NCBI GenBank assembly: GCA_963924565.1
Contig: OZ004607.1
Span: forward strand, 5,456,001-5,520,000
DNA: 64,000 bases
DNA from: Ascidiella aspersa
Lineage: Eukaryota
Direction: 5' to 3'
Made by a program: the position numbers and the translations under genes. Shown in pieces: positions 2,513 to 57,965 of this stretch. Positions within the stretch are counted from its first letter, which is position 1, and every line of letters starts with the position of its first letter. Under the pieces are notes generated by a model that saw only the letters and a list, made by a program, of their open reading frames with translations, did not search any database and was not told the DNA's origin.

Positions 2513-4219
2513 ATTTATTTATGTTTAATGTTGTAAATCCGAATCGGCCTATTACTTCACTACAAAAGGATCGCTTTTGTCGGTTGCAGGCAGTTTATGT
2601 AAGCTAGAAGAATTTTTGCCGCCAGATGCGAGCACATATATGACGCCTTACGCCGCTGCTACGATCTTGACTTGCGGTGGAGGCCGTTGACTGCTTGTTT
2701 GTAGCTACTTTCCAAACTGTTAGGTCGGCTGTCAGCTCTTTGTGTGTGTCGGCAGCAGCGGAGGCGGTCTCGCCTTGTTCTCTGTATATTTTCCTTGCCC
2801 GTTCTAATCCGCACAGGAGAAGCGCCAGGCCGATCGCAGCCTTGCGAAAGTCGCTTATCTCTGATTGGTGGACGCGAGATGCGGGCGATTCTGTCGTCAC
2901 GACGCCGTGACGTGTCAAAGTGCCCACCTCGCCCATCTTGATTCCTCCTGCCAGCCCAACGCCGCACGTTTGTTGCCGTTGCAAAAGTAAAAACGTGTCA
3001 ATCAATAAGTTAATTAGATGATCGCAATGCCGACGTCGCCCTTCAGGTGAGATATGCGGAAAATTTAAAGTCGCATTTTTACGCACCGTCAGACCGGTAG
3101 ACCCCTTGATGGAAATAACAAAATATAGACGAATTTGTGCTGGCGCCCTCTTGCGCGACCAGTTTGGAAACTGTTTTTTGGCGGTATCACACGGCTTTGA
3201 CGAAGATACGGTTCTCTGCTTCAATTTAGATTTACGTGATGTAAAAAAGGATAAAAACTGTGCTTTATATTTCTTTGTGCAGGCGATCGAAAGTGATGTG
3301 TTTGAAAGAGCTTTATATTAGACAAAAAACGGTCCATTCTGCTTTGAAGGCGCGATTCCTCGTTTAATGAGGATACTGTGATTTATGGATACACCAACTG
3401 CGTTGTTTTCAAATTAGGTAATCGCATAGCGTTGTTTTAACGAGAGAGTCATTTTCTTTATACAGAGAAAAATTGCTGTTTGTACATAAGGTATTCGGCA
3501 ACGTTTCTGTCTCCAAATTGCGATCGATTACGCTGATTGCTGGCAGCAAAATTGCCGGAGAGCTCACAAAAGCAATCTCAGTTTCCGCGTTTTACCTCAG
3601 TCGCATATTTCGCGCGAATTTCGTCGAACACGAGACGAAAGACAAAAAGCGCTACGCCGTAAAAAATGGCCGACGCCGAACTTTAATTCTCTTTGCGTGT
3701 TATTTTACCTCTATTTGTCTACACTCGGGCGCTTCGCGGACCACCCGGCCCCGTATAAATAATCGCGGCGCCCGCTTCGAGCATCAAAAAAAACGTACAC
3801 AAGTACGAAAAGACCTTGCAAAATTTGCGCGCCGCCTTGTAATCCAAAAGAGACAGGGGCAAACATATTAGCGATAATTTTACAGCCATTTTGCCAGGAC
3901 CCGGGCGTTTATTTTGGATCAGGTGCCATCAAAGCGCGCGTCGGCGCCGCAATTTGTTGCCACTCCGCCACGCCGGATCGCCCGCCTGTCAGGGCTTTAT
4001 GGTCAGTCCTGTTGCGTCAACGCGAACCTTCAGAGGCCACACAGCGAGTCCCCACGACGCTATCGCTGCATCTCGGCCTCTCTCCTGACCTGTTTACGCG
4101 TGCGGCGAACGTTGCGCGTCCTTCGAGAAAAATACTGACGATTTTTTGCCTCTGCAGCCTCTCTTGCCGCAGGACTAAAGAATAGCCGCTGTGTGCCTTG
4201 CTCGCAAGTTACTTTATAT

Positions 4220-4830
4220 CGGGTGAAGCCAACTTATGTTTGATTGCGATCGGCTGAAATTTTGAGACCCCGGTCGGTAAAAAAGTCACAAAAACACTTG
4301 TTGATCATTTTAAGCGTTAATTGCATTTCCCGGCGATGGAGGTTAACTTATTACGTCAGTGCTTCTCAACCTATGGGTCGCGACTTAAAATTGGGTCGCT
4401 GTTTGATTTGGTTGGGTCGCCGACCGCAGTAGTTACATGTTTATGCTAATTGAGATTGGTTCTGAGAAAGATTTCTCAATTTAGAAAATTAAGGAAGCAA
4501 TACAAATAATGTCTAATTATTAAAATTCGAAATTCTTTATGCTAATGCCTATTTTTTGTTCGCTTACAATGAATTGTTTTTTATTTCCCTTACAAGAAAA
4601 ACAATTGGGTCGCCAAGCTTATCGTCATAATTGCGCTTAATATTTGGGCCGCCGCGAAAAAAGGTTGAGAAGCACTGTGTTACGTCAAAGAGCGCTTTTT
4701 CAGGCTTGTCCAGGCAACAATTGGTCATTTTAACGTTCCGCTTGTGTGCGACAGCTACTGTAATGACGTAACACACATTCGACGCGATCGACCAGGTGAA
4801 GTGTGGCGATCGACGTGTTGGCTACCCCTA
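4220..4830. mobile_element. hAT MITE family E copy (reverse orientation) interrupted by a family D insertion
   Basis: 4220-4356 and 4678-4830 join into the reverse complement of 52872-53161. Confidence 0.88.
4357..4677. mobile_element. hAT MITE family D nested in family E
   Basis: Perfect 16-bp TIR CAGTGCTTCTCAACCT / AGGTTGAGAAGCACTG; TSD TATTACGT / TGTTACGT; GGGTCGC subterminal repeats. Confidence 0.92.
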
Positions 4831-7002: not shown

Positions 7003-7383
7003 GTTGCAATTGTAAAATTGTTCTTCCGGCAAATTTTTTTATCGAAATTGATGTATAATGACTTTAGTATTAATATTGAAATAGATTCAATTTTAAAACT
7101 GTTCTTTCACCAAGATTTTATCAAAGTACCAACGTTTCGACCACCTATTCGGGTAATCTTCTGCGGGGCAACATAATTGCTACTATAGGCGAAATATATA
7201 TATATACTAGACAAACAATAAGGGAAAAACAACAACTTCGCCTTTAGTTGCAATTATATTTCCCTGAATAAGATTGCCCGAATAGGTGGTAGAAACGTTG
7301 ATACTTTAATAAAATTTTTTAAAAGAACAGTTTTACAATTGAATCGATTTCAATATTAATACTAAAGCCAATATATTCGATAA
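7003..7383. mobile_element. Fold-back repeat family F (arms ~7040-7193 and ~7237-7383)
   Basis: AAAGTACCAACGTTTCGACCACCTATTCGGGTAATCTT and its reverse complement; related copies at 2400-2512 and 18641-18810. Confidence 0.8.
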
Positions 7384-7409: not shown

Positions 7410-7792
7410 GATTTTATCGAATATAATGGTTTTAGTGTTTTTATTGAAATTACTATAAAACCTTGTATTGCGTTGCAAGAAAGTTAATTTTCCGTAGACC
7501 ATCTTTATTCCTTGGATGCAATACACGAGTTTATTAGTGATTTTGATAAAAATATTAAGCCATTATATTTGATGAAATCGACGTTTCGTTGTTCACAAAC
7601 GGTTTAGCAATAAGTCATGCCATCATCAGTGTAAAAAAATAAAAGTGAAGATAAAATGTTACCGTTTTTATCTTCGCTTGTGTTTTCACACTGAATATGG
7701 CATGAGGTATTCCCATAATGTTTGTAAACAACGAAGTGTCGATTTTATCGAATATAATGGCTGTAATATTTTTATTGAAATCATATTAACTC
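7410..7792. repeat. Chained palindromic repeat (A-A'-B-B'-A), family G
   Basis: GATTTTATCGAATATAATGG at ~7411 and 7741 with an inverted copy at ~7560-7579; inner inverted pair ~7580-7656 / ~7666-7740. Confidence 0.75.
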
Positions 7793-8020: not shown

Positions 8021-8336
8021 CAGTGGTTCTCAACCCGGGATGCCGCGGCACTCAGGGTGCCATTTTTACTGTTTAAGGGTGGAGAGAGATATTTCGAATT
8101 CTTTTGGATTCTAAACTTTGCTCTATTAGTAAGCTTCTTGATACAATTTTTTTATATACGATAAAAGTGCAAAAAATTGAAAAGGTTTTATCAACCTTGT
8201 TGCACATCTGCTGTTTCAATCTCGTTTATTGTAACGTTACAGTTAACCACTCAGCAAAAATACGAGCAAGGGTGCCGCTTGGTATTTATAATTTCTGTAT
8301 AGGGTGCCGCAAGCCAAAAAAGGTTGCGAAACACTG
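8021..8336. mobile_element. hAT (Buster/Charlie-like) MITE family B, full length
   Basis: TIRs CAGTGGTTCTCAACC / GGTTGCGAAACACTG; perfect 8-bp TSD GAATAGAC (8013-8020, 8337-8344); subterminal GGGTGCC repeats. Confidence 0.92.
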
Positions 8337-9211: not shown

Positions 9212-9253
9212 ATTAAAACGTTTCGATACGAACTTGTATCATCTTCAGTTAAT
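9212..9253 (-). ncRNA. Minimal type-I hammerhead-ribozyme-like motif (solo copy)
   Basis: Minus strand AUUAA-CUGAAGA-U-GAUAC(AAGUUC)GUAUC-GAAA-CG-UU^UUAAU: 5-bp stem I, CUGANGA core, 5-bp stem II, GAAA, palindromic ACGU in place of stem III. Confidence 0.6.
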
Positions 9254-18640: not shown

Positions 18641-18810
18641 AACAATTGTAAAATTGTTCTTCCCACAAAATTGTACTAAAGTTCCAACGTTCCGACCACC
18701 TATTCGGGTATAGTTGCAATAATATTGCCCTAAAGAAGATTGCCCGAATAGGTGGTCGAAACGTTGGTACTTTAATCAATTTTTGCCGCAAGGACAATTT
18801 TACAATTGTT
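18641..18810. mobile_element. Family F fold-back copy
   Basis: AACAATTGTAAAATTGT...CGACCACCTATTCGGG / CCCGAATAGGTGGTCGAAACGTTGG...ACAATTTTACAATTGTT. Confidence 0.8.
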
Positions 18811-18857
18811 ACAATTGAAACAATGGCTGGCAGCAAAAACATATTCATTACTTTGTA

Positions 18858-19061
18858 GCATAATGGTTGGAGGTTGTAGTAAGACGTAATAAGAATATCA
18901 AAGCCCATACAGAAGTAGGTTGCATTTTGAACGTTTCGAATAACTCTTTATTCATTTTCAACATAGAGAGAAGTCACTGATGGTAAGTAAAATGAATAAA
19001 GAGTTATTCGAAACGTTCAAACTGATACCTACTTCTGTATGGGCTTTAATATTCTTATTAC
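18858..19061. mobile_element. Fold-back repeat family A, best copy; arms carry a hammerhead-like motif
   Basis: Inverted arms 18886-18958 and 18989-19061 (GTAATAAGAATATCAAAGCCCATACAGAAGTAGGT...GAACGTTTCGAATAACTCTTTATTCATTTT); about nine related copies in the window. Confidence 0.85.
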
Positions 19062-20042
19062 ATATTCATTACAATAAAGTAAACCAATCAACGGAAATTT
19101 GGGTGTGTTGCAATATATTTACTATTTCAGGGGATGCGTAAACTGCTACATGTTAGAAACCACTTATAGATAGGGAAAACGCAACAAATCGAATGGCATA
19201 AAATGGTTGTTCTATCAACTTTGCTTACTTTAAAACGGTTGGTTGCAAACCAGATGTTTTACTTTCTTTAGGACTTTTTCATGTCAGTTTAAAATATATT
19301 CATTACACCTTAGAGCAGGCTAACGACACTTCAGCGTTTGAAACATAATTTTGTCCCAAAATATTTGTTTTTGTTTGTCGCGTCCTGCAAATATCGTTGA
19401 AAACAAATGAAGAATTGGTTTTGGTAGTTTGAACCACCCCCAACCATACGACAACAATTGCTTCATTCACAAAACACAAACATTCAGCAAGTTCTCAAAT
19501 CGTTCTCGTAAACGCAGGCCAATGTTGTTGTTTTGCCTTCGAACGTCCGCACCCAGTAGTTTTACGCAGAAAGTTTGCCTTATAGTTAGCTGAAAATCAC
19601 AATCAAGGGTGCATTTTCTTATGGAAAGAATCGTAAATAGAAGCAAGGTGCCTCGTTTTCAATATAAGTCTAACTGTTATAGCGGTTTTCCTGTCAAATA
19701 TTGAGCTGTTTTAGACATGGCAAGGTGTCAAATCATTGTGGAGTTTGGAGTGTGTAGGACTGGTAGATAAATCTATACCAGGGCTTTGCAAGTTGACATA
19801 GGCCTATTTTTACTTGGCTTGATTACAAAACGTTCAATGAAATATGGACCGTGTCGCTGTTTAATGGACCAAGGGGGCCGTATATTTCGTACGTCATTAA
19901 ATGACGTGATGGTCGATCATCGTATGTTGACAAATGCTCGGTTATGGACCAAAAAACGTTAAGGCACGCATGAACAGCATCCCTTTACGTACGCAGTGAA
20001 CATTACGCAGTCTAATTAGGCCTAGTTCATTCACACATACAA

Positions 20043-20356
20043 CGATAGTTCTCAGCCGGGGTTCCGCGTCAATACTCTAGGGTGCCATTTTCAACGCTTA
20101 AGGGTGCCGAGAGATATTTTAAATGATTAAGGATTCCAATTTTTGTTCTACTGGTAAGCTTCTTAAAACAATTTTTGTGTACGATAAATGTGCAAAAAAT
20201 TAAAAGCAACCTTGTTGCGCAGTTAATGTACCGTTTCAATCTCGTTTATAGTAAACGCTACAGTTAACCAATCAGCAAAAATACGAGCAAGGGTGCCGCG
20301 AACTACTTATAATTTCTATAGGGTGCCGTAAGCCAAAATAGGGTTGCGAAACACTG
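20043..20356. mobile_element. hAT MITE family B copy
   Basis: Collinear similarity to 8021-8336; right end GGTTGCGAAACACTG; left TIR degenerate. Confidence 0.85.
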
Positions 20357-21776: not shown

Positions 21777-22084
21777 TAGTGGTTCTCAACCAGCACTCTG
21801 GGATGTCAATTTTTAACGCTCAAGGGTGCCGAGATATATTTTAAATTCTTTACGATTCCATTTGTTGCTTTACAGGTAAGCTTCTTAATACACTTTTTTG
21901 TATACGATAAAAGAGCCAAAAAATAATTAGTTTTTTTTTACTTATTGCTCAGTTAATGAGTTGTTTCAATCTATTTTATTGTAATGTTACAGATATCCAC
22001 TCAGCAAAAATACGAGCAAGGTTGCCGCGAACTTTTTACAATTTATGTAGAGTGCCGCAAGTTAAAAAGGGTTGGGAAGCACTG
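21777..22084. mobile_element. hAT MITE family B copy
   Basis: TAGTGGTTCTCAACC...GGTTGGGAAGCACTG; decayed TSD CATTAAAT/CAATGAAT. Confidence 0.85.
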
Positions 22085-23536: not shown

Positions 23537-23864
23537 CAGGGGTTCGTCCTAAACCGGTTGTTCTTCCTTAATTTTGTTCTTGACTTTTTTCTTAGCGGAC
23601 CCCAATTTTTTTGCTTCGCATGAATCAGGGTAGGCAAAACGTCATAAATTCACGTCACACTATAAAATTACTTCATTCTGCTGTTTTCGGTCCAAAAATG
23701 TGAAAGTTCAGTGCACAAACGTTTTATTTTTAATTAAAAACTTTTGTTTGAAAAATTGATTACTTTTAAAATAAACCCTAATGTTTGAATTAAACCCTCA
23801 TGGACCCCCTAATATGGGCTTTCGTACCCGCAAGCTGCCATGCATCCCATTTTAAGAACCCCTA
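23537..23864. mobile_element. hAT MITE family C copy (diverged)
   Basis: CAGGGGTTC...GGTCCAAAAATGTGAAAGT...CATGGACCCCCTAA...TTTAAGAACCCCTA. Confidence 0.8.
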
Positions 23865-24234: not shown

Positions 24235-24313
24235 CGTAATAAGAATACCAAAGCCCATACAGAAGTAGGTAGCATTTTGAACGTTTCGAAAAACTCTTTA
24301 TACATTTTCAACA
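24235..24313. mobile_element. Family A single arm
   Basis: Near-identical to 18885-18963. Confidence 0.8.
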
Positions 24314-25284: not shown

Positions 25285-25319
25285 GTAAGAAAGGCTTTAC
25301 AGTTATAGTTGCACTATGG

Positions 25320-25669
25320 CAGGGGTTCTTAAACATTTTTTACCGCGGACCCCTAAACTATTTTTGTGCTTCGCGTGGACCACGGTAGCCAAGAAAATTT
25401 CAAAAAAAGGACGGCATAAATTGACGTCATAATTCAAATAGACTTCATAAATCTTCTGATTTCTGTCCAAAAAATGTGAAAGTGAAATGGAGTCTAAATA
25501 GGATTCAGTGCAAAGACGTTTTATTTTTAATTAAACTGTTTTCTTTGAAAAATTAATTACTTTTTAAATATACACTAATATTTCAATTAGGCCTTCATAG
25601 ACCCCCTAAAACTACTAAAACTAATTCACGGACCCAAGGGATCTACGGACCCCAATTTAAGAACCTCTG
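25320..25669. mobile_element. hAT MITE family C copy, 35 nt after the exon 1a donor
   Basis: CAGGGGTTCTTAAAC...TTTAAGAACCTCTG; collinear with 37262-37601. Confidence 0.88.
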
Positions 25670-34411: not shown

Positions 34412-37400
34412 AGATTGTGATATTTACGCAGTGCCTTTAAGGCCGCGTTAGAAATGCTTGCAAGCCCTCACAATTTTCAATATAAATTCTTTCATTGGTG
34501 AAACATGTTTTTTGTCAATTAAAAGTTAATTTTCCTCTGTTTTTCGAAGGTTAACTTTGTGGATAGAAACTCGCATTGTCTTGTCGGCTGAAATTCTTCG
34601 TTAAAATCAAGTGCCCCTTTGCTAATCAATTATTCAGACGCCCAAAAAAAGCGCGCAATTTTTTTGGAGCGTAGGTAGGGAAATGTTATATTCCGGCACC
34701 AGTTGTTGCGCTTCGGTGCCGCGTTCCAGTTTTGCTTCCACAAAGTTGTGGTCCGTTTGTTTCCCCTTGGCGGAACGGGCCGGGGCAATAAATCGAAACT
34801 AACTCGGTCACTTCCAATCTATGGCAAACAACAGCAAATCCGTGGCCAGGCAGAAACGCGCTACAGCGCTAAAGGAAAGGCAACCGGTAACACTTGGCCG
34901 TGTCTCTTCCGCTTTTGCAAGGGCGATTTCCCAGTCGTTTGGCCAGCAGCAGCAGCAGCAGCAGAGTAGCTTGACCGTCGGATGTCGGTGCTTGGCTCGC
35001 AATCGACGCGTCGCGTTCTAAGCAGTTCGCTAAACATCCGCGCCCTTGTCGCTGCACGTTAAAACGTGCCCGGTGATAAGCGAAACAAACACAAGGCCGC
35101 GACCGGGCGCTGCGAAAGCGGGTCAGGGGCGTGTGCGCCGCATTCTTAACGATTTACCTGGCCACAGGTGCTCACGTCGAATGCCCATGTATCTTTCCAC
35201 AGTTACAGGTCGACTTTTCGTCACCCTCGCGAAAACTAGGGATGTCCAGTGGTTTATATTGCTAACGTTTTTTGGATTAGGGTGAGAGTTTGGGTTTGGG
35301 TTTGGATGGGTCAAGTATTACTATATTTATTCTCCCATATTTAATACTTCCTTGTGTGCTGGTCTACAATCCTACCACAGCATTGAAACAATTATTAAAT
35401 CAAAAAATGTTCTGAAACCATGATAAACAGCAGTTTCAAGTTATATTTATCTTTTTTATATATATATTTCTTTGAGCTGTGTCCATACAGGAAACTGGTA
35501 CCATTTAACACCAAAAATATGGTTACTTACAAGTTGGCCTATTGAACACTTTTCGTCAAATCTCATTTGTTTCGACTAAAACTAAAAACCTAAATTGCTA
35601 GTTTTCGTCCCCAGCGTTGCAAACTTGTGTCAGGGGGCTTAGGTCGCTCCAGTTTCCTTGTTAGCTTGTTCTGGTTGTATTGCGTGTTTGTTTGTTTGCG
35701 CCTGCCCAGATTTTCTAAAAGTTAATCCCTCTGGCAAAGGGCGTCACCCCTTCCAGCACAGGCCTTTCCTATATTGTGGTGTTGATAAATTATGGAAATT
35801 GAAGGCTGCAGAGGATGCTTAACTAGATTGAATCACACACTTTTACCTCGCTTCGTTTTTTCGATGATCTAGCTTCTGTTAGAAAAATGCAAAACTGGAT
35901 TGTACTTTTTAAATGCAATTATAAATTGATTGATTTTTGCCGCCTGGTCTGGCAAGCCTTTCAGTGGTCAAATTGTATGACGATTGTCTTAGTGAAGCTA
36001 AAGTGATTCTTTAAGGAAATAGTTGAAAAAAAACTACCTTTTTCAAACAAAAGGTCCTGTTTAATACAACATCTTAACATAGCTGGTGAACAATTATTTG
36101 TAAGTACAACTTTGAGTGCAAATCAATAACACAATTTGCTTGAAATCATGGTGATATTGAATTTATTACTGATTAAATATCTATTATCACAATAATTTTT
36201 TTTTAGGTAAATTTATTATATTTTTTCTTAGCTGTTTTTGTTTTGGTATTTTGGATAACGTGAGTTGTGAGACTTTTTAATATTTTCAATTCATTTTGGG
36301 GAATATGCATGCATGTCTAATTGGATAGGTAGTTTTTTGGCCAACAACATATGCTTGGCTTTCCCAATATGGAATAATTACAATTGGATTTTTGTTGTTT
36401 GTCGATTCGGATGATTTGTGGCGAGTTGTTCTATCGTAATTTGTTTACTGAACTGCTCTTGAACCTGAAGCGGTTTTCTACCGAAGTTCAGCAATCTCGC
36501 GCTTGAGTTTCAGAGTGCCAATTACAGTCAGCGAAAAATGTTAAGCTGTCTCTCACCGTGCAATTACAACAATGCCATCATGAGAGCGATTCGGCAAACC
36601 TGGCGATTTCGCGTGAACCCGCTAAAAATAAAAAGCGACAGAGTAGGAGAAAACGAGTGTGCCGTAATCTACTCGAGTTTGATTTTTACTGGAAGTGTAA
36701 CCTGTTTTTAGAATTCGTACCCATTGCGTTTTTCATGAAAAATTAACTTAATAAAACTGTGTTGTGAAACACAGTTTTGAATGCCACGAATTAAACAGGT
36801 GTTCGGCAAAATTTCGAATGTACAAAGGCGCCGTTGTTTTTTCTCCGCACCTGTGGAGTTTGTCGTTTGTCGAGTGAAAATGTTATTAAACTCTCCAATA
36901 TTTTTTCTAATATTTGCTCATTAGCGCGGTTGGCATTTCGGTGATTTATAGATCCCCTGGCTTGTAAATGTCAATTTCCCGTGCACCTGTTCAACTTGTT
37001 AATTAGCTTAGGCAAAATAGTAGATTGTGATATTTACTTGGCACCTCTAAGGCCGCGCTAGAAACACTTGAAAAGCCTTTCTCATTCTAAATTTAATTTC
37101 TTAATTGTGAAACATTTTTTTAATGTTTGTTTCTCTTTTATTAAAGGTTCAATTTTTTTTTAATCTAGCATTGCCCCCCTCGCCTGAAATTCTTACCCCT
37201 AGCTGTAAATGTATCTTTCCCGTGTACAGCTGTTCAACCTTTGTTTCCAATAAGCTTAGGCCAGGGGTTCTTGAACTTTTTTTTACCGCGGACCCCTAAC
37301 AATTTTCTTTCATCTCACGTGGACCACTGTAGGCGAAAAATGTACAAAATTATGTCATAAATTGACTTCACAATACAAATAGACTTCATAAATTTGCTGA

Positions 37401-37980
37401 TTTTGGTCCAAAAATGTGAAAGTGAAATGGAGTCTAAATACATTCAGTGCAAAACCGTTTAGTTTTTGATTAAATTTTTTTCTTTAATAATCTGATTACT
37501 TCCGAAATATACACTATTATTTCAAATATACCTTCATGGACCCCCTAAAACTAGTTCACGGACCCCCAAGGGGTACATGGACCCCAGTTTAAGAACCCCT
37601 GGCTTAGGCAAACAGAGACCAGAGTTGAAAAAAGTGGTAAAGGGCATTATTCCTGTCTCATACGTTGCCCCGTTTTTTTTCGATATTTTACAAGACATCT
37701 TTTAGTGTTATGGCCTGTCTTGTTGATATTTCACGCAAACTTTTGGCGCAAAAATATTTATCAGACAGCAGCGTTCCCCGTTCTTATCCCAGAGGAACGG
37801 TGTTGATAAATTATGGAAATGAAGGCTTTAAAATATGCTTGACTAGATTGAATCACACGCTTTTGCCTTGCTTTGTTTTTCGGTGCGAATTGGATTGTAC
37901 TTTAACATGCAAATATAAGTCGTTTGATTTTGACAGCCTGGCCTGACAAATCTTTTCGTGGTCAAATTGTACGATGGTTG
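34412..37980 (+). repeat. Local direct duplications in intron 2
   Basis: 34412-34598 resembles 37022-37194; 35778-35986 resembles 37799-37980; 36954-37018 resembles 37196-37261. Confidence 0.85.
37262..37601. mobile_element. hAT MITE family C, full length
   Basis: TIRs CAGGGGTTCTTGAAC / GTTTAAGAACCCCTG; perfect TSD GCTTAGGC (37254-37261, 37602-37609); subterminal GGACCCC repeats. Confidence 0.93.
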
Positions 37981-38895: not shown

Positions 38896-39218
38896 CAGTG
38901 GTTCTTAAATTTTTTTTTTGTGTTTTTTTTTTTTGGACCAGGGTAGGAAAGAAATTTCTAGAGATGTCGTCATAAATTGACGTCACATTACAAATAGAGG
39001 TCAGAAATCTCCTGTTTCCGTTCCAAAAAATGTGAAAAATGAAAGAGCGCATAAATACATCCAGTGCAAAAAACGTTTTATTTTTTAACATCTTATTCTT
39101 GAAAACTTGATTATTTTACAAATATACACTCATATTTCAATTCGGCCTTCATGGACTTCATAACACTAGTTCACCTACCCCCAAAAGGGGTCCATTGACC
39201 CCAGTTTAATCAGTCCTG
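38896..39218. mobile_element. hAT MITE family C copy (diverged)
   Basis: CAGTGGTTCTTAAA...GGGGTCCATTGACCCCAGTTTAA; internal similarity to 37262-37601. Confidence 0.8.
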
Positions 39219-42037: not shown

Positions 42038-42240
42038 CAGTGGTTCTCAACCAGGGTGCCGCAGCATTCTAGTCTAGGGTGCCATTTTAACGTTAAAGGG
42101 TGTCGAGAGATATTTCAAATTCTTTAGGATTTCATTTTTGCTCTATTGGTAAGCTTCTTGATGCAATCTTTTTGTGTACGATAAAAGTGCCAATAATTAA
42201 CAAGGTTTTTTCAACCCTAGTTAATGTGCTGTTACAATCA
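42038..42240. mobile_element. hAT MITE family B, truncated, 48 nt after exon 3
   Basis: CAGTGGTTCTCAACCAGGGTGCC left end and internal similarity; right part replaced by a family A copy. Confidence 0.8.
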
Positions 42241-44269: not shown

Positions 44270-44528
44270 AAGAATATCAAGGCCCATACATTATTTTGAA
44301 CGTTTGAAATAACTCTTTGTTCATTATCAACGTACACAAATTGTGCACAAAGTTTAAACCAAACGATTGTTATAAGAATTTCACAGCCCATACAGAAGTA
44401 GGTATCATTGTGAACGTTTCAAATTTTATTCATTTTCAACTAAATTCAAAACTATGATACCCACTTCTGTATGGGCTTTGATATTCTTATTACGTCATAC
44501 CGCAACCTTCAACCATTATGCGCCAAGG
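44270..44528. mobile_element. Family A: partial arm followed by a fold-back copy
   Basis: Arm fragments at ~44270-44331 and ~44373-44440, then an inverted arm ending CAACCATTATGCGCCAAGG. Confidence 0.8.
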
Positions 44529-50047: not shown

Positions 50048-52161
50048 GCCAGCATTACGACAAGTTGTAGCTCGCCCAGGTCGTATAAACATAAGGAAAG
50101 TGTTTAGAGGCCGTAAAACCGGACAGCGGCATCTCGTTTTGAGCCTTTCGTCCCTATGGTCTATATAACAGAAAGAAAGTTGCAACCTGCAAACTTTATA
50201 TGCGCCAACTTTAGTTAGAAACCGTTAAAAATGGATTTAAATAGACGTAAATCCGAAAATAGTAGCTTTTAAACGTTTATCGGCATGTTCGAGCAACAAA
50301 ACAGGCGCAAGTATTCAATTGGTGTTTCAGAGTTCTGTGTAGAACTGCCTAAACTAAACTGTAGTGCTCTGGTCTGGCCAACGTCGGCGCCTTATCACAC
50401 CAGTTGACACACAGCCAGTTTACATGGCCACTAGGAAACACCAAGCTCCCTTTATAACTTTAAGGCTCGGAAAAAGCTCCTTTTGAACCGACCACCTTTT
50501 TTTAAGAAAATACCATGGAACAAGCTTTTAAACTGGCCACACAAATCAGCCCCTACAGAGTTTATTGTTAATGTTCAATGATGTGTATTTGGTCTAAAGC
50601 TGTGGAATATTGTCCGAAACGTATTACACAACCTGAGCTATACAGCTTTCATATTCCTACGCTTTACTTTTTTTCGATAAAATTGTAGCGATAAACGAGT
50701 GTTTAAACCAATGTGACCCATGGGTTGTGACCCTCATTTTTAAGCATCTGACCATCAACAGCAGTTTGTAAGGTCGTCAAAGGATACGTCGACCAGACGT
50801 CGCAACAACACAGAACCGGAGAAAATGCGCAATAGGCGGACCGGCTAAAAATATCAATATTTGCCCGCTCGGCGACCCGGCCGACCCCGCGATGCGCCAA
50901 TATATAAAAGCGCGCTTTAATACACGCGATACCCCCCTCAAATCTAGAGGTTTCGCCCGGCACGGCAATCATTAATTGGCCGCTTTGAAATCGCGCTCAG
51001 ATCTCGCCGCCTTTCGAGCACTTGCGCCAACACGGCCCGGGCCTAAAACAAAGTTTGTTTTCTTGTTGATTCGCTCGCTCACGCGCGCTTGCTCATATGC
51101 GCCCAAATATTTGCCGTGGCCCGGAGCAGAACCACTGCTAAGCGATTGTTTCAAGTAATTGCGCCGCGTGCACCCCTTATCTCTGGGTTTGTCCAGGGCG
51201 TATGTGAGCTTCAAACAAGCCCTGCGCTCTAGGCGACAGTGATCTTTGCCTCCCCCCCCCCTCCCCTGAAAAAGACAACGCTTTCGCCCTATTCCAACTG
51301 TCCCTATACAATTTCGTTCATAGTAAATTATCCACTTTTTCCTTAATTATCCACTTTTCTGATATATAATTTACTAAACAAAAAAAAATCGCAAATCACG
51401 TCGCCTGTGGGAAAAAACCCGCCGGCAATGAACAGTCTCTTTTTTGTCGTTTGTTCGACGAACTTGTTTGTCGTGATGAGCTCGAATTAATAATGTAGAG
51501 GCGGTAGTGATGAAACGCGCGCCCTGGGGTCGAAATATTTAATCATCAAATATATTGGTATTGGAATGAATCACGTCGCTTATGTCTGGAAACGCGTGTG
51601 ATCTCATGTTATGCAACAAGAGAAATACCTTTTTTTCCCGTTCCGGTGAATTGTATGCTTGTTTAATTAACGTTAGTTGTTCCTGTTACTTTCAACATAG
51701 AGCGGGGTGCTGTTTTTTGACATAAAAACTAACTTAGGATTTTTTACTATCATTAAATATTTTTTTAATGACTGGATTTTGTCGTTGCATATACGGTTGG
51801 CTCGGGTTATTGATATTATTTCGCTTTTTGAATGTGATGACTAGAAGTAGAACATAACCCCAAACTGGGTTCAATCACGAACAACAATGTTTTTTTCTCT
51901 AGATGGCAAAAAGTAAAAAAGAAGAACACTAATTATACCAAATTTCCACCTTATACATAAAACACATTTTCTGTTGTTGTTCAACGAAAAATTGATTATC
52001 AGTATTTGTTTGACAAAATTGATTTCCTATATATATACTAAATAAATAAGAAGTTTTTTTGTTGTTTCAAATTGAGAAAATAAATGGGCTCCTTCACAAA
52101 TCAAAAATCTTCTCCGTTCATTAAGTTTCGAATTTTGGTTATTGTGCTCTAGGTCCTATAG

Positions 52162-52397
52162 CAGGGGTTCTTAAATTTTTTTACCGCCGACTTTCAGAAA
52201 ATATGCTGATGATTTAAGTAAAATCAAGTATAAATACGTTCAGTGCTAAAATGTTTTATATTTAATTAAGCTCCTTTCTTTAAAAGTATTATTATTTCTT
52301 AAATATGCATCAACATTTCAATTTGCCTTCATGGACCCCCTAAAGTTAGTTCACGTAGACCCAAAGGGGTCCATGGGCCACAGTTTAAAAGCCCCTG
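52162..52397. mobile_element. hAT MITE family C, internally deleted
   Basis: CAGGGGTTCTTAAA / TTTAAAAGCCCCTG; perfect TSD TCCTATAG. Confidence 0.9.
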
Positions 52398-57802: not shown

Positions 57803-57965
57803 CCTTGGAGCATAATGGTTGGTGGTTGTATGAAGGCGTAATAAGAATAGAAAAGCCCATACGGAAGTCATGATGTTCATCAGCATGTTGAAAATGAATA
57901 AAGCATTATTCGAGACGTTCAAAATGATAGCTACTTCTGTATGAGCTTTGATATTCTTATTGCGT
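57803..57965. mobile_element. Family A fold-back copy in intron 7
   Basis: CCTTGGAGCATAATGGTTGG...GCCCATACGGAAGT and inverted arm GTTGAAAATGAATAA...CTTTGATATTCTTATT. Confidence 0.8.

Follow-up and report, generated by a model that had tools for sequence, protein, structure and literature searches.

A minimal hammerhead motif with a U3-A8 pair in the pseudo-LTRs of a Penelope-like element family of Ascidiella aspersa

Results

The repeat copy and its motif

The stretch analysed here, called the window in the following, comprises 64,000 nucleotides of Ascidiella aspersa DNA (contig OZ004607.1, positions 5,456,001 to 5,520,000). It contains a 208-bp head-to-head inverted repeat (18852-19059) flanked by a 13-bp target duplication, whose features are listed in Table 1. 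The long arm carries a minimal type-I hammerhead motif (min-HHR) on the minus strand, and the original reading of this strand from 18963 to 18928, UG-UUGAAAA-U-GAAUAA(AGAG)UUAUUC-GAAA-CG-UU^CA, is exact. U3 is at 18961, A8 at 18956, G10.1 at 18953, C11.1 at 18938 and U17 at 18930; the predicted cut lies between 18930 and 18929, and a stem III would form from the palindromic ACGU only in a dimer. The long arm is without the TATA box found at positions 3602-3609 of the parent element described below, and the short arm, which begins within the core, is without U3-U4-G5. By folding, an RNA spanning both arms forms a single hairpin (-109.9 kcal/mol, z=-19).

Table 1. Window coordinates of the repeat copy, its motif and its flanks.
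Feature	Position	Strand	Remark
Left target-site duplication, 13 bp	18839..18851	+	identical to 19060-19072
Long arm, pseudo-LTR fragment of the parent PLE (L093:3611-3746)	18852..18988	-	132/137 aligned columns identical to L093
34-nt PLE tail, long arm only	18852..18885	-	two clusters of arm 3' ends
Minimal type-I hammerhead motif, 2-bp stem I (UG/CA)	18928..18963	-	
G12-A13-A14-A15.1, palindromic ACGU, U17	18930..18937	-	
Stem II, 6 bp, closing pair G10.1-C11.1, 4-nt loop	18938..18953	-	-1.3 kcal/mol
A9-U-G10.1, in-frame AUG, likely parent ORF start codon, 26 nt before the cut	18953..18955	-	
Core U3-U4-G5-A6-A7-A8-A9, U3-A8 variant of CUGANGA	18955..18961	-	
Match to the inferred transcription start (parent 3632-3634)	18964..18966	-	arm ends and extra G
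Short inverted arm, parent 3640 to about 3711	18989..19059	+	begins inside the core
Right target-site duplication	19060..19072	+	identical to 18839-18851

A descriptor of the U3-A8 min-HHR matches once in the whole window, at 18928-18963, and has 0 matches in 150 dinucleotide-Markov random windows. The recurrence of the core, as originally proposed, holds for 594, 24305 and 44433 and, inverted, for 57887; all four copies are, however, decayed elsewhere. At 594 stem II contains a mismatch and CG is replaced by UG, which is not palindromic; the copy at 24305 has mismatches in stem II, that at 44433 a deletion in stem II, and that at 57887 GAGA in place of GAAA. Among the five window sites the motif is complete only at 18928-18963.

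In the RNA data used (one raw run, X5, about 6% of it) arms of this repeat family, designated family A, are covered on both strands, and 95% run on into unrelated sequence. Over ORF positions 3776-4300 the depth was zero; ends did not pile up anywhere, and the run is silent on cleavage. The missing TATA box, U17, the second arm lacking U3-U4-G5 and the hairpin lock make the window copy a likely inert stub, whose putative ribozyme would be unable to cut here. Ribozyme action of this copy within a host transcript, either alone or through its two arms paired as a dimer, would be in keeping with the intactness of every motif position in the long arm and with the presence of family arms in RNA reads. 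The missing TATA box, U17, the hairpin and the second arm, inverted and without U3-U4-G5, speak against it, and we give the idea very little credence.

The antisense strand of the repeat carries in many copies a strong splice-donor-like GGTAAGT, including the window copy at 18982-18988. The corresponding L093:3611-3617 differs from it by one base, and no spliced joint is present among the RNA joints listed.

The parent element

Family A arms are pseudo-LTRs of an endonuclease-bearing (EN+) Penelope-like element (PLE), probably of the Penelope/Poseidon type, in which a Zn-finger linker between RT and EN would be absent. The RT-EN linker of the parent has one Cys (by eye), and the tree described below consists of rows of this genome only, without named Penelope/Poseidon references. 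The first analysis had correctly recognised the arms as a hammerhead-bearing family, while their identity as PLE pseudo-LTRs and the already published U3-A8 variant had escaped it.

The genome searched comprises 309 Mb in 75 contigs. In the best 30 copies of the genome one end is fixed, whereas the truncation of the other arm, the centre and the length of the duplication differ from copy to copy (the duplications scored partly by eye), a pattern unlike that of a MITE. A MITE of a DNA transposon was rejected as a candidate, there being no fixed terminal inverted repeats and no fixed-length duplication, and the parent encoding an RT. Sequence upstream of the core led to frames bearing RT and GIY-YIG motifs. 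Two loci, L093 and L095, have 843-codon stop-to-stop frames with an arm on both flanks. The layout is that of a single frame with the RT followed by a C-terminal GIY-YIG, and the protein shows the motifs YVDD (RT) and GVIY...YIGQT (GIY-YIG). Pfam on the parent ORF gave RVT_1 at E=1.8e-9 and GIY-YIG at E=7e-4 with 20.2 bits, which is under the 22.6-bit cut-off; the GIY-YIG domain searched alone gave no match. The nearest Atlas clusters are RT/GIY-YIG eukaryotic retroelement proteins (0.98). The pseudo-LTRs, identical at 312/315 positions in the L093 pair, are partial tandems in direct or inverted orientation which overlap the ORF start, and the frame of the parent runs through the hammerhead motif.

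A head-to-tail array of four near-identical full-length units (99.8-99.9% alike, period 2671 bp) lies on contig C9 (L089/L090, G000:C9:23.485-23.496 Mb). It has an inverted arm at its 5' end, and the same late frameshift affects the endonuclease region of its units.

Positions 3 and 8 within family A

With the flanks fixed, 1029/1066 exact-context copies genome-wide are U3-A8 and 0 are C3-G8. The 25 non-U3 copies comprise 12 C3-A8, 1 C3-C8, 9 A3 and 3 G3, with no C3-G8, and 12 further copies have U3 with a base other than A8, 2 of them G8; in these two counts N7 was fixed as A. The 21-nt core context has 1029 genome matches versus 0 for its reversed control. In a sample of 96 arms, picked by a downstream anchor among the first 100 of 1168 matches, 58 span the core; U3 is found in 58/58 and A8 in 57/58 of these, and at H17 35 of them have U and 23 have C, none having G; the intact parent has C. 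As had been proposed, U3-A8 is the consensus of the family and not the product of decay.

Tabulating the two positions across family A copies, the check originally suggested, bore out the near-fixation of U3-A8, while the deviations turned out to be rare independent decay. Since positions 3 and 8 vary solely in this way, tabulation within the family cannot show covariation, which is visible in the comparison between families. An older C3-G8 subfamily was sought in L097 and L099, which are too decayed to read, and among 30 insertion-subfamily loci, whose core-bearing copies are all U3.

An older offshoot of family A consists of head-to-tail repeats with a unit of about 75-80 nt (L256, L257, L261, L266, L268, L279, L280 and L283). 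The unit starts inside stem II, so that the 5' core is missing, and 2 nt are inserted behind the cut site; it has 102 exact motif matches genome-wide.

Sister families

From 115 RT matches 40 loci of other PLEs were chosen and scanned with positions 3 and 8 left free. A C3-G8 min-HHR was found by the scan in 34/40 and by eye in a 35th, L139; in five none is readable. The motifs found group into ten ORF-linked sister families, one motif being unlinked. Every GAAA-CG-UH core of the 40 loci, read in its own register, is free of a 3-8 mismatch; other matches of the scan are shifted registers of true motifs or a family A arm inserted in L155, and there were also loose matches without the CG palindrome, a part of which are mismatched at 3-8. 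In the closest sister, 43% identical over 842 aa, CUGAUGA stands at the equivalent ORF start, and the spacing from AUG to cut is likewise 26 nt.

In the RT tree (20 rows) family A clusters with four C3-G8 families at 100/100 and the outgroup clade is all C3-G8, the tree being midpoint-rooted, built of own-genome rows and showing long branches for two decayed relatives of family A. On this tree U3-A8 reads as a derived state that arose once. Compared to its sisters family A has retained G5, G10.1, C11.1 and G12, whereas stem II and the pairs 2.1-1.1 and 2.2-1.2 are altered with pairing maintained. The claim that the arms carry a hammerhead core in which pair 3-8 is compensated is upheld by this positional homology to the C3-G8 cores of ten sister families. 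The retained G and C positions and the paired changes favour selection on structure over AT drift, although this is a single event: both compensatory changes, C3 to U3 and G8 to A8, are GC-to-AT transitions made at one place of the tree. The motif overlaps the ORF start, and coding and promoter constraints could in part hold it in place. With its young parent and the ten C3-G8 sister families present in the same genome, family A belongs to a matched set on which selection of PLE hammerheads for catalysis can be examined.

A canonical C3-G8 min-HHR of a sister PLE family is also present in the window itself, on the minus strand at about 9214-9251 (C3 at 9248). It is the same as that of L135/L136, with U17.

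The parent element refutes the reading of the motif as a chance look-alike in the AT-rich DNA of a DNA-transposon MITE, to which we attach next to no probability. Inverted arms and AT-rich DNA would suit this reading; Rfam gave at E<=5 nine weak hairpin matches and no hammerhead, and folding of the motif by itself was not superior to that of shuffled sequences (z 0.08 and -1.17). Since Rfam likewise misses the canonical motif at 9248, its null carries no information, and the variable lengths of the target duplications, the arm ends, the RT of the parent, the positional homology to canonical cores and the empty random windows all stand against chance.

Helix strength and cleavage

The caveat that stem I has about 2 bp holds, and it does so in the intact parent as well. 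No extension of stem I was found in 15 nt upstream or 20 nt downstream; the absence of an extendable stem I is among the refuting conditions of the original prediction. Stem I of family A has a constrained energy of +3.2 kcal/mol. Stem II, at -1.3 kcal/mol, is the weakest of 13 rows, the 11 C3-G8 rows ranging from -3.0 to -9.0. Four C3-G8 sister motifs also have a stem I of 2 contiguous bp, and two of them extend past a bulge. The features of a canonical monomeric type-I hammerhead, i.e. a stable stem III and a 6-bp stem I with loop contacts, are absent. Dimer cofolding yielded no active fold for family A nor for three C3-G8 controls and does not discriminate. Because the parent itself has a stem I of just 2 bp, and a stem II weaker than any other compared, cleavage by the parent motif is probably weak or protein-dependent; that the motif would cut slowly as a protein-assisted dimer in tandem transcripts is the likeliest reading, which we put at about even chances, the alternative being a vestigial motif.

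Junctions between arms start at the predicted cut in 4/53 cases exactly and in 7/53 within 1 nt (by eye), with no peak there; the remaining starts scatter over parent 3663-3676. Loose ends at parent 3669 were considered as a cleavage footprint, which was discarded, their consensus being that of a subfamily that has 2 nt inserted at this point. Also discarded was an intron with its end at stem I, as described for D. virilis: AG is absent from 3632-3634, and the joints listed include none of splice type.

Arm ends and the template of the copies

The 5' ends of 52/96 arms fall at parent 3632-3638, that is 0-5 nt before the core (U3 = 3637), the main sites being 3634 (31 arms) and 3632 (9 arms); the 96 arms include apparent segmental duplicates (L201-L204, L219/L220), so that counts overstate independence. 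An extra non-parental G precedes 29/40 arms ending at 3632 or 3634 (P=2e-9 versus 27% expected) and 3/21 internal arm ends, and the complementary C follows the partner arm in 33/53 junctions (by eye, partly the same copies). In the parent a TATATATA box lies 30-32 nt upstream of this start site, which is inferred from DNA ends alone. The 3' ends form two clusters, 46/96 at parent 3702-3722 and 46/96 at 3742-3755, which bound the tail. An extra G at the end of a cDNA can be a mark of reverse transcription through a cap. In family A it suggests that the start site is likely capped and the template likely uncut. No PLE paper on such a cap-G signature is among the literature matches listed.

The following mechanism would account for these ends. 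Transcription of the parent would use the TATA promoter of the upstream pseudo-LTR and begin 3-5 nt ahead of U3, and the 5' strand of stem I would thereby consist of just the first few RNA bases. The RT of the element would prime on nicked AT-rich DNA, start within the RNA about 80 and about 115 nt from the cap and copy back to the cap, giving cDNAs of 80-115 nt, two of which joined head-to-head would give the family A palindromes. Templates would be mostly uncut, and cleavage would thus not be needed for making family A insertions, in agreement with the in vitro results on an Anolis element, whose hammerhead mutants still insert and whose cutting depends on the protein (PMC11167929). The long arm of the window copy reaches 23 nt upstream of the start site and would for this reason derive from a read-through or 3' pseudo-LTR template.

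We consider it an evenly balanced proposition that each stub arm copies in full a short piece of capped, uncut sense RNA, between an RT start inside the RNA and a cap 3-5 nt before the core, with two such copies joined head-to-head in each palindrome, and that the start site, by limiting stem I to 2-3 bp, may switch off the U3-A8 ribozyme in the capped template and yet allow tandem transcripts to be cut. If true, the thousand-plus family A stubs would be a genomic record of Penelope replication in vivo, would argue against antisense self-priming and would confirm in vivo that insertion needs no cleavage. The arm-end footprint, which places the start site at stem I, points to an uncut capped template and makes two models of PLE replication testable, is in our opinion a more useful result than the U3-A8 core.

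Neighbouring repeats

A second palindromic repeat family (families D13 and D19; pairs I1, I8 and I13) adjoins the window copy at 18641-18810 and is also present at 7054-7375 and 2345-2527. A long inverted repeat with 85-nt arms (7558-7762) has weak, sub-threshold miRNA-like Rfam scores. Two dispersed repeat families, one at 23707-23864, 25315-25669, 37257-37601, 38968-39218 and 52157-52397 and the other at 8054-8302, 20079-20323, 21801-22052 and 42085-42211, are probably non-autonomous DNA transposons. Outside the window an internally deleted inverted element of about 470 bp recurs near contig ends (L037, L038, L041, L042, L052 and similar sites), several copies with identical flanks, which is probably due to subtelomeric duplication. 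Beside PLE copies there are a 259-aa uninterrupted frame (L064:584-1360, minus strand), which we take to resemble a proteasome alpha subunit, and frames presumably resembling a Bel/Pao LTR retrotransposon (L061:3-1463, minus strand).

Discussion

What the motif does in the parent

We think it quite probable that the motif is the min-HHR of an endonuclease-bearing PLE in which U3-A8 has replaced C3-G8 in family A, that the parent RNA would likely cut weakly, as a dimer and probably with its own protein, and that the window copy is likely inert. Another reading, which we find doubtful though possible, is that of a vestigial ribozyme, descended from a hammerhead but non-catalytic in family A, kept by its overlap with the start site and the first codons, and with U3 and A8 reached by AT drift. 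The weakest stem II combined with a 2-bp stem I, the probably uncut RNA as source of most copies and the lack of a peak at the cut site all agree with it, as do the insertion in vitro of an Anolis element unimpaired by hammerhead mutants (PMC11167929) and the existence of entire PLE clades which thrive without a hammerhead (PMC8557442). Against it, all other G/C positions of the core survive, stem II keeps 6 pairs despite its new sequence, and both stem I pairs have been exchanged and are still paired. Positions 3-8 precede the likely AUG, where coding does not have to maintain them, H17 is either U or C and never G in the 58 arms, and several C3-G8 sisters have the same 2-bp contiguous stem I.

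Comparison with known systems

The papers in this section are cited from those parts of their text which were available. The U3-A8 variant of the hammerhead is already known, and family A is a further natural case of it. Perreault et al. 2011 (PMC3088659) described natural U3-A8 covariation in hammerheads and stated it to be active in vitro; family A has the same 3-8 covariation, while dependence on a dimer and a 2-bp stem I are unstated in the available text of that paper. A literature search on U3-A8 hammerheads gave PMC4209133 only (Cervera and De la Pena 2014), the figures or supplements of which may list family A. This paper defines the min-HHR in pseudo-LTRs of metazoan PLEs, with a stem I typically of 4-5 bp (2 bp in D. 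virilis) and low activity in vitro, and reports U3-A8 in Cercyon elements of Schistosoma mansoni, with about 1,300 hits. Common to its motifs and to family A are the type-I layout without a real stem III, the palindromic 15.1-16.1, the extra base between 9 and 10.1, the pair G10.1-C11.1, the mostly dispersed truncated copies, the inverted pairs and U3-A8. Family A differs in its 2-bp stem I, equal to that of the D. virilis variant, and in its stem II, which is of 6 bp and very AU-rich compared to 7-8 bp. Host and element family are different from those of the Cercyon elements, and U3-A8 of family A is probably independent of the Schistosoma case. Further literature on the subject includes PMC6765202, PMC2377424 and bioRxiv 10.64898/2026.07.22.740005.

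The role of PLE hammerheads is regarded as an open question (PMC4209133, PMC8557442, PMC11167929). In the Poseidon element of Anolis carolinensis (PAc, PMC11167929) cutting by the hammerhead needs the element protein. PAc is like family A in that the ORF begins at stem II, the cut lies 26 nt after the start codon and positions 3 and 8 precede that codon; PAc has two RT start sites bounding a tail of 30-40 nt (the PLE tail is also described in PMC8557442) and uncut RNA as the main template, as proposed for family A, and in both no RNA-seq ends are found at the cut. PAc has C3-G8 and its protein-assisted cleavage has been tested, whereas cleavage in family A is a prediction; the cap-G footprint is a feature of family A and not among the descriptions of PAc found in PMC11167929.

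The Penelope element of Adineta vaga with inverted pseudo-LTRs (PMC3846280) resembles family A in its ORF of about 840 aa, in a pseudo-LTR including the first codons, in a TATATATA box about 20 bp before the initiator, in an optional one-arm tail and in the head-to-head arrangement; its 8-10-bp target duplications may be likened to those of family A. For this element PMC3846280 favours self-priming on an antisense template, whereas the extra G of family A points to a capped sense template.
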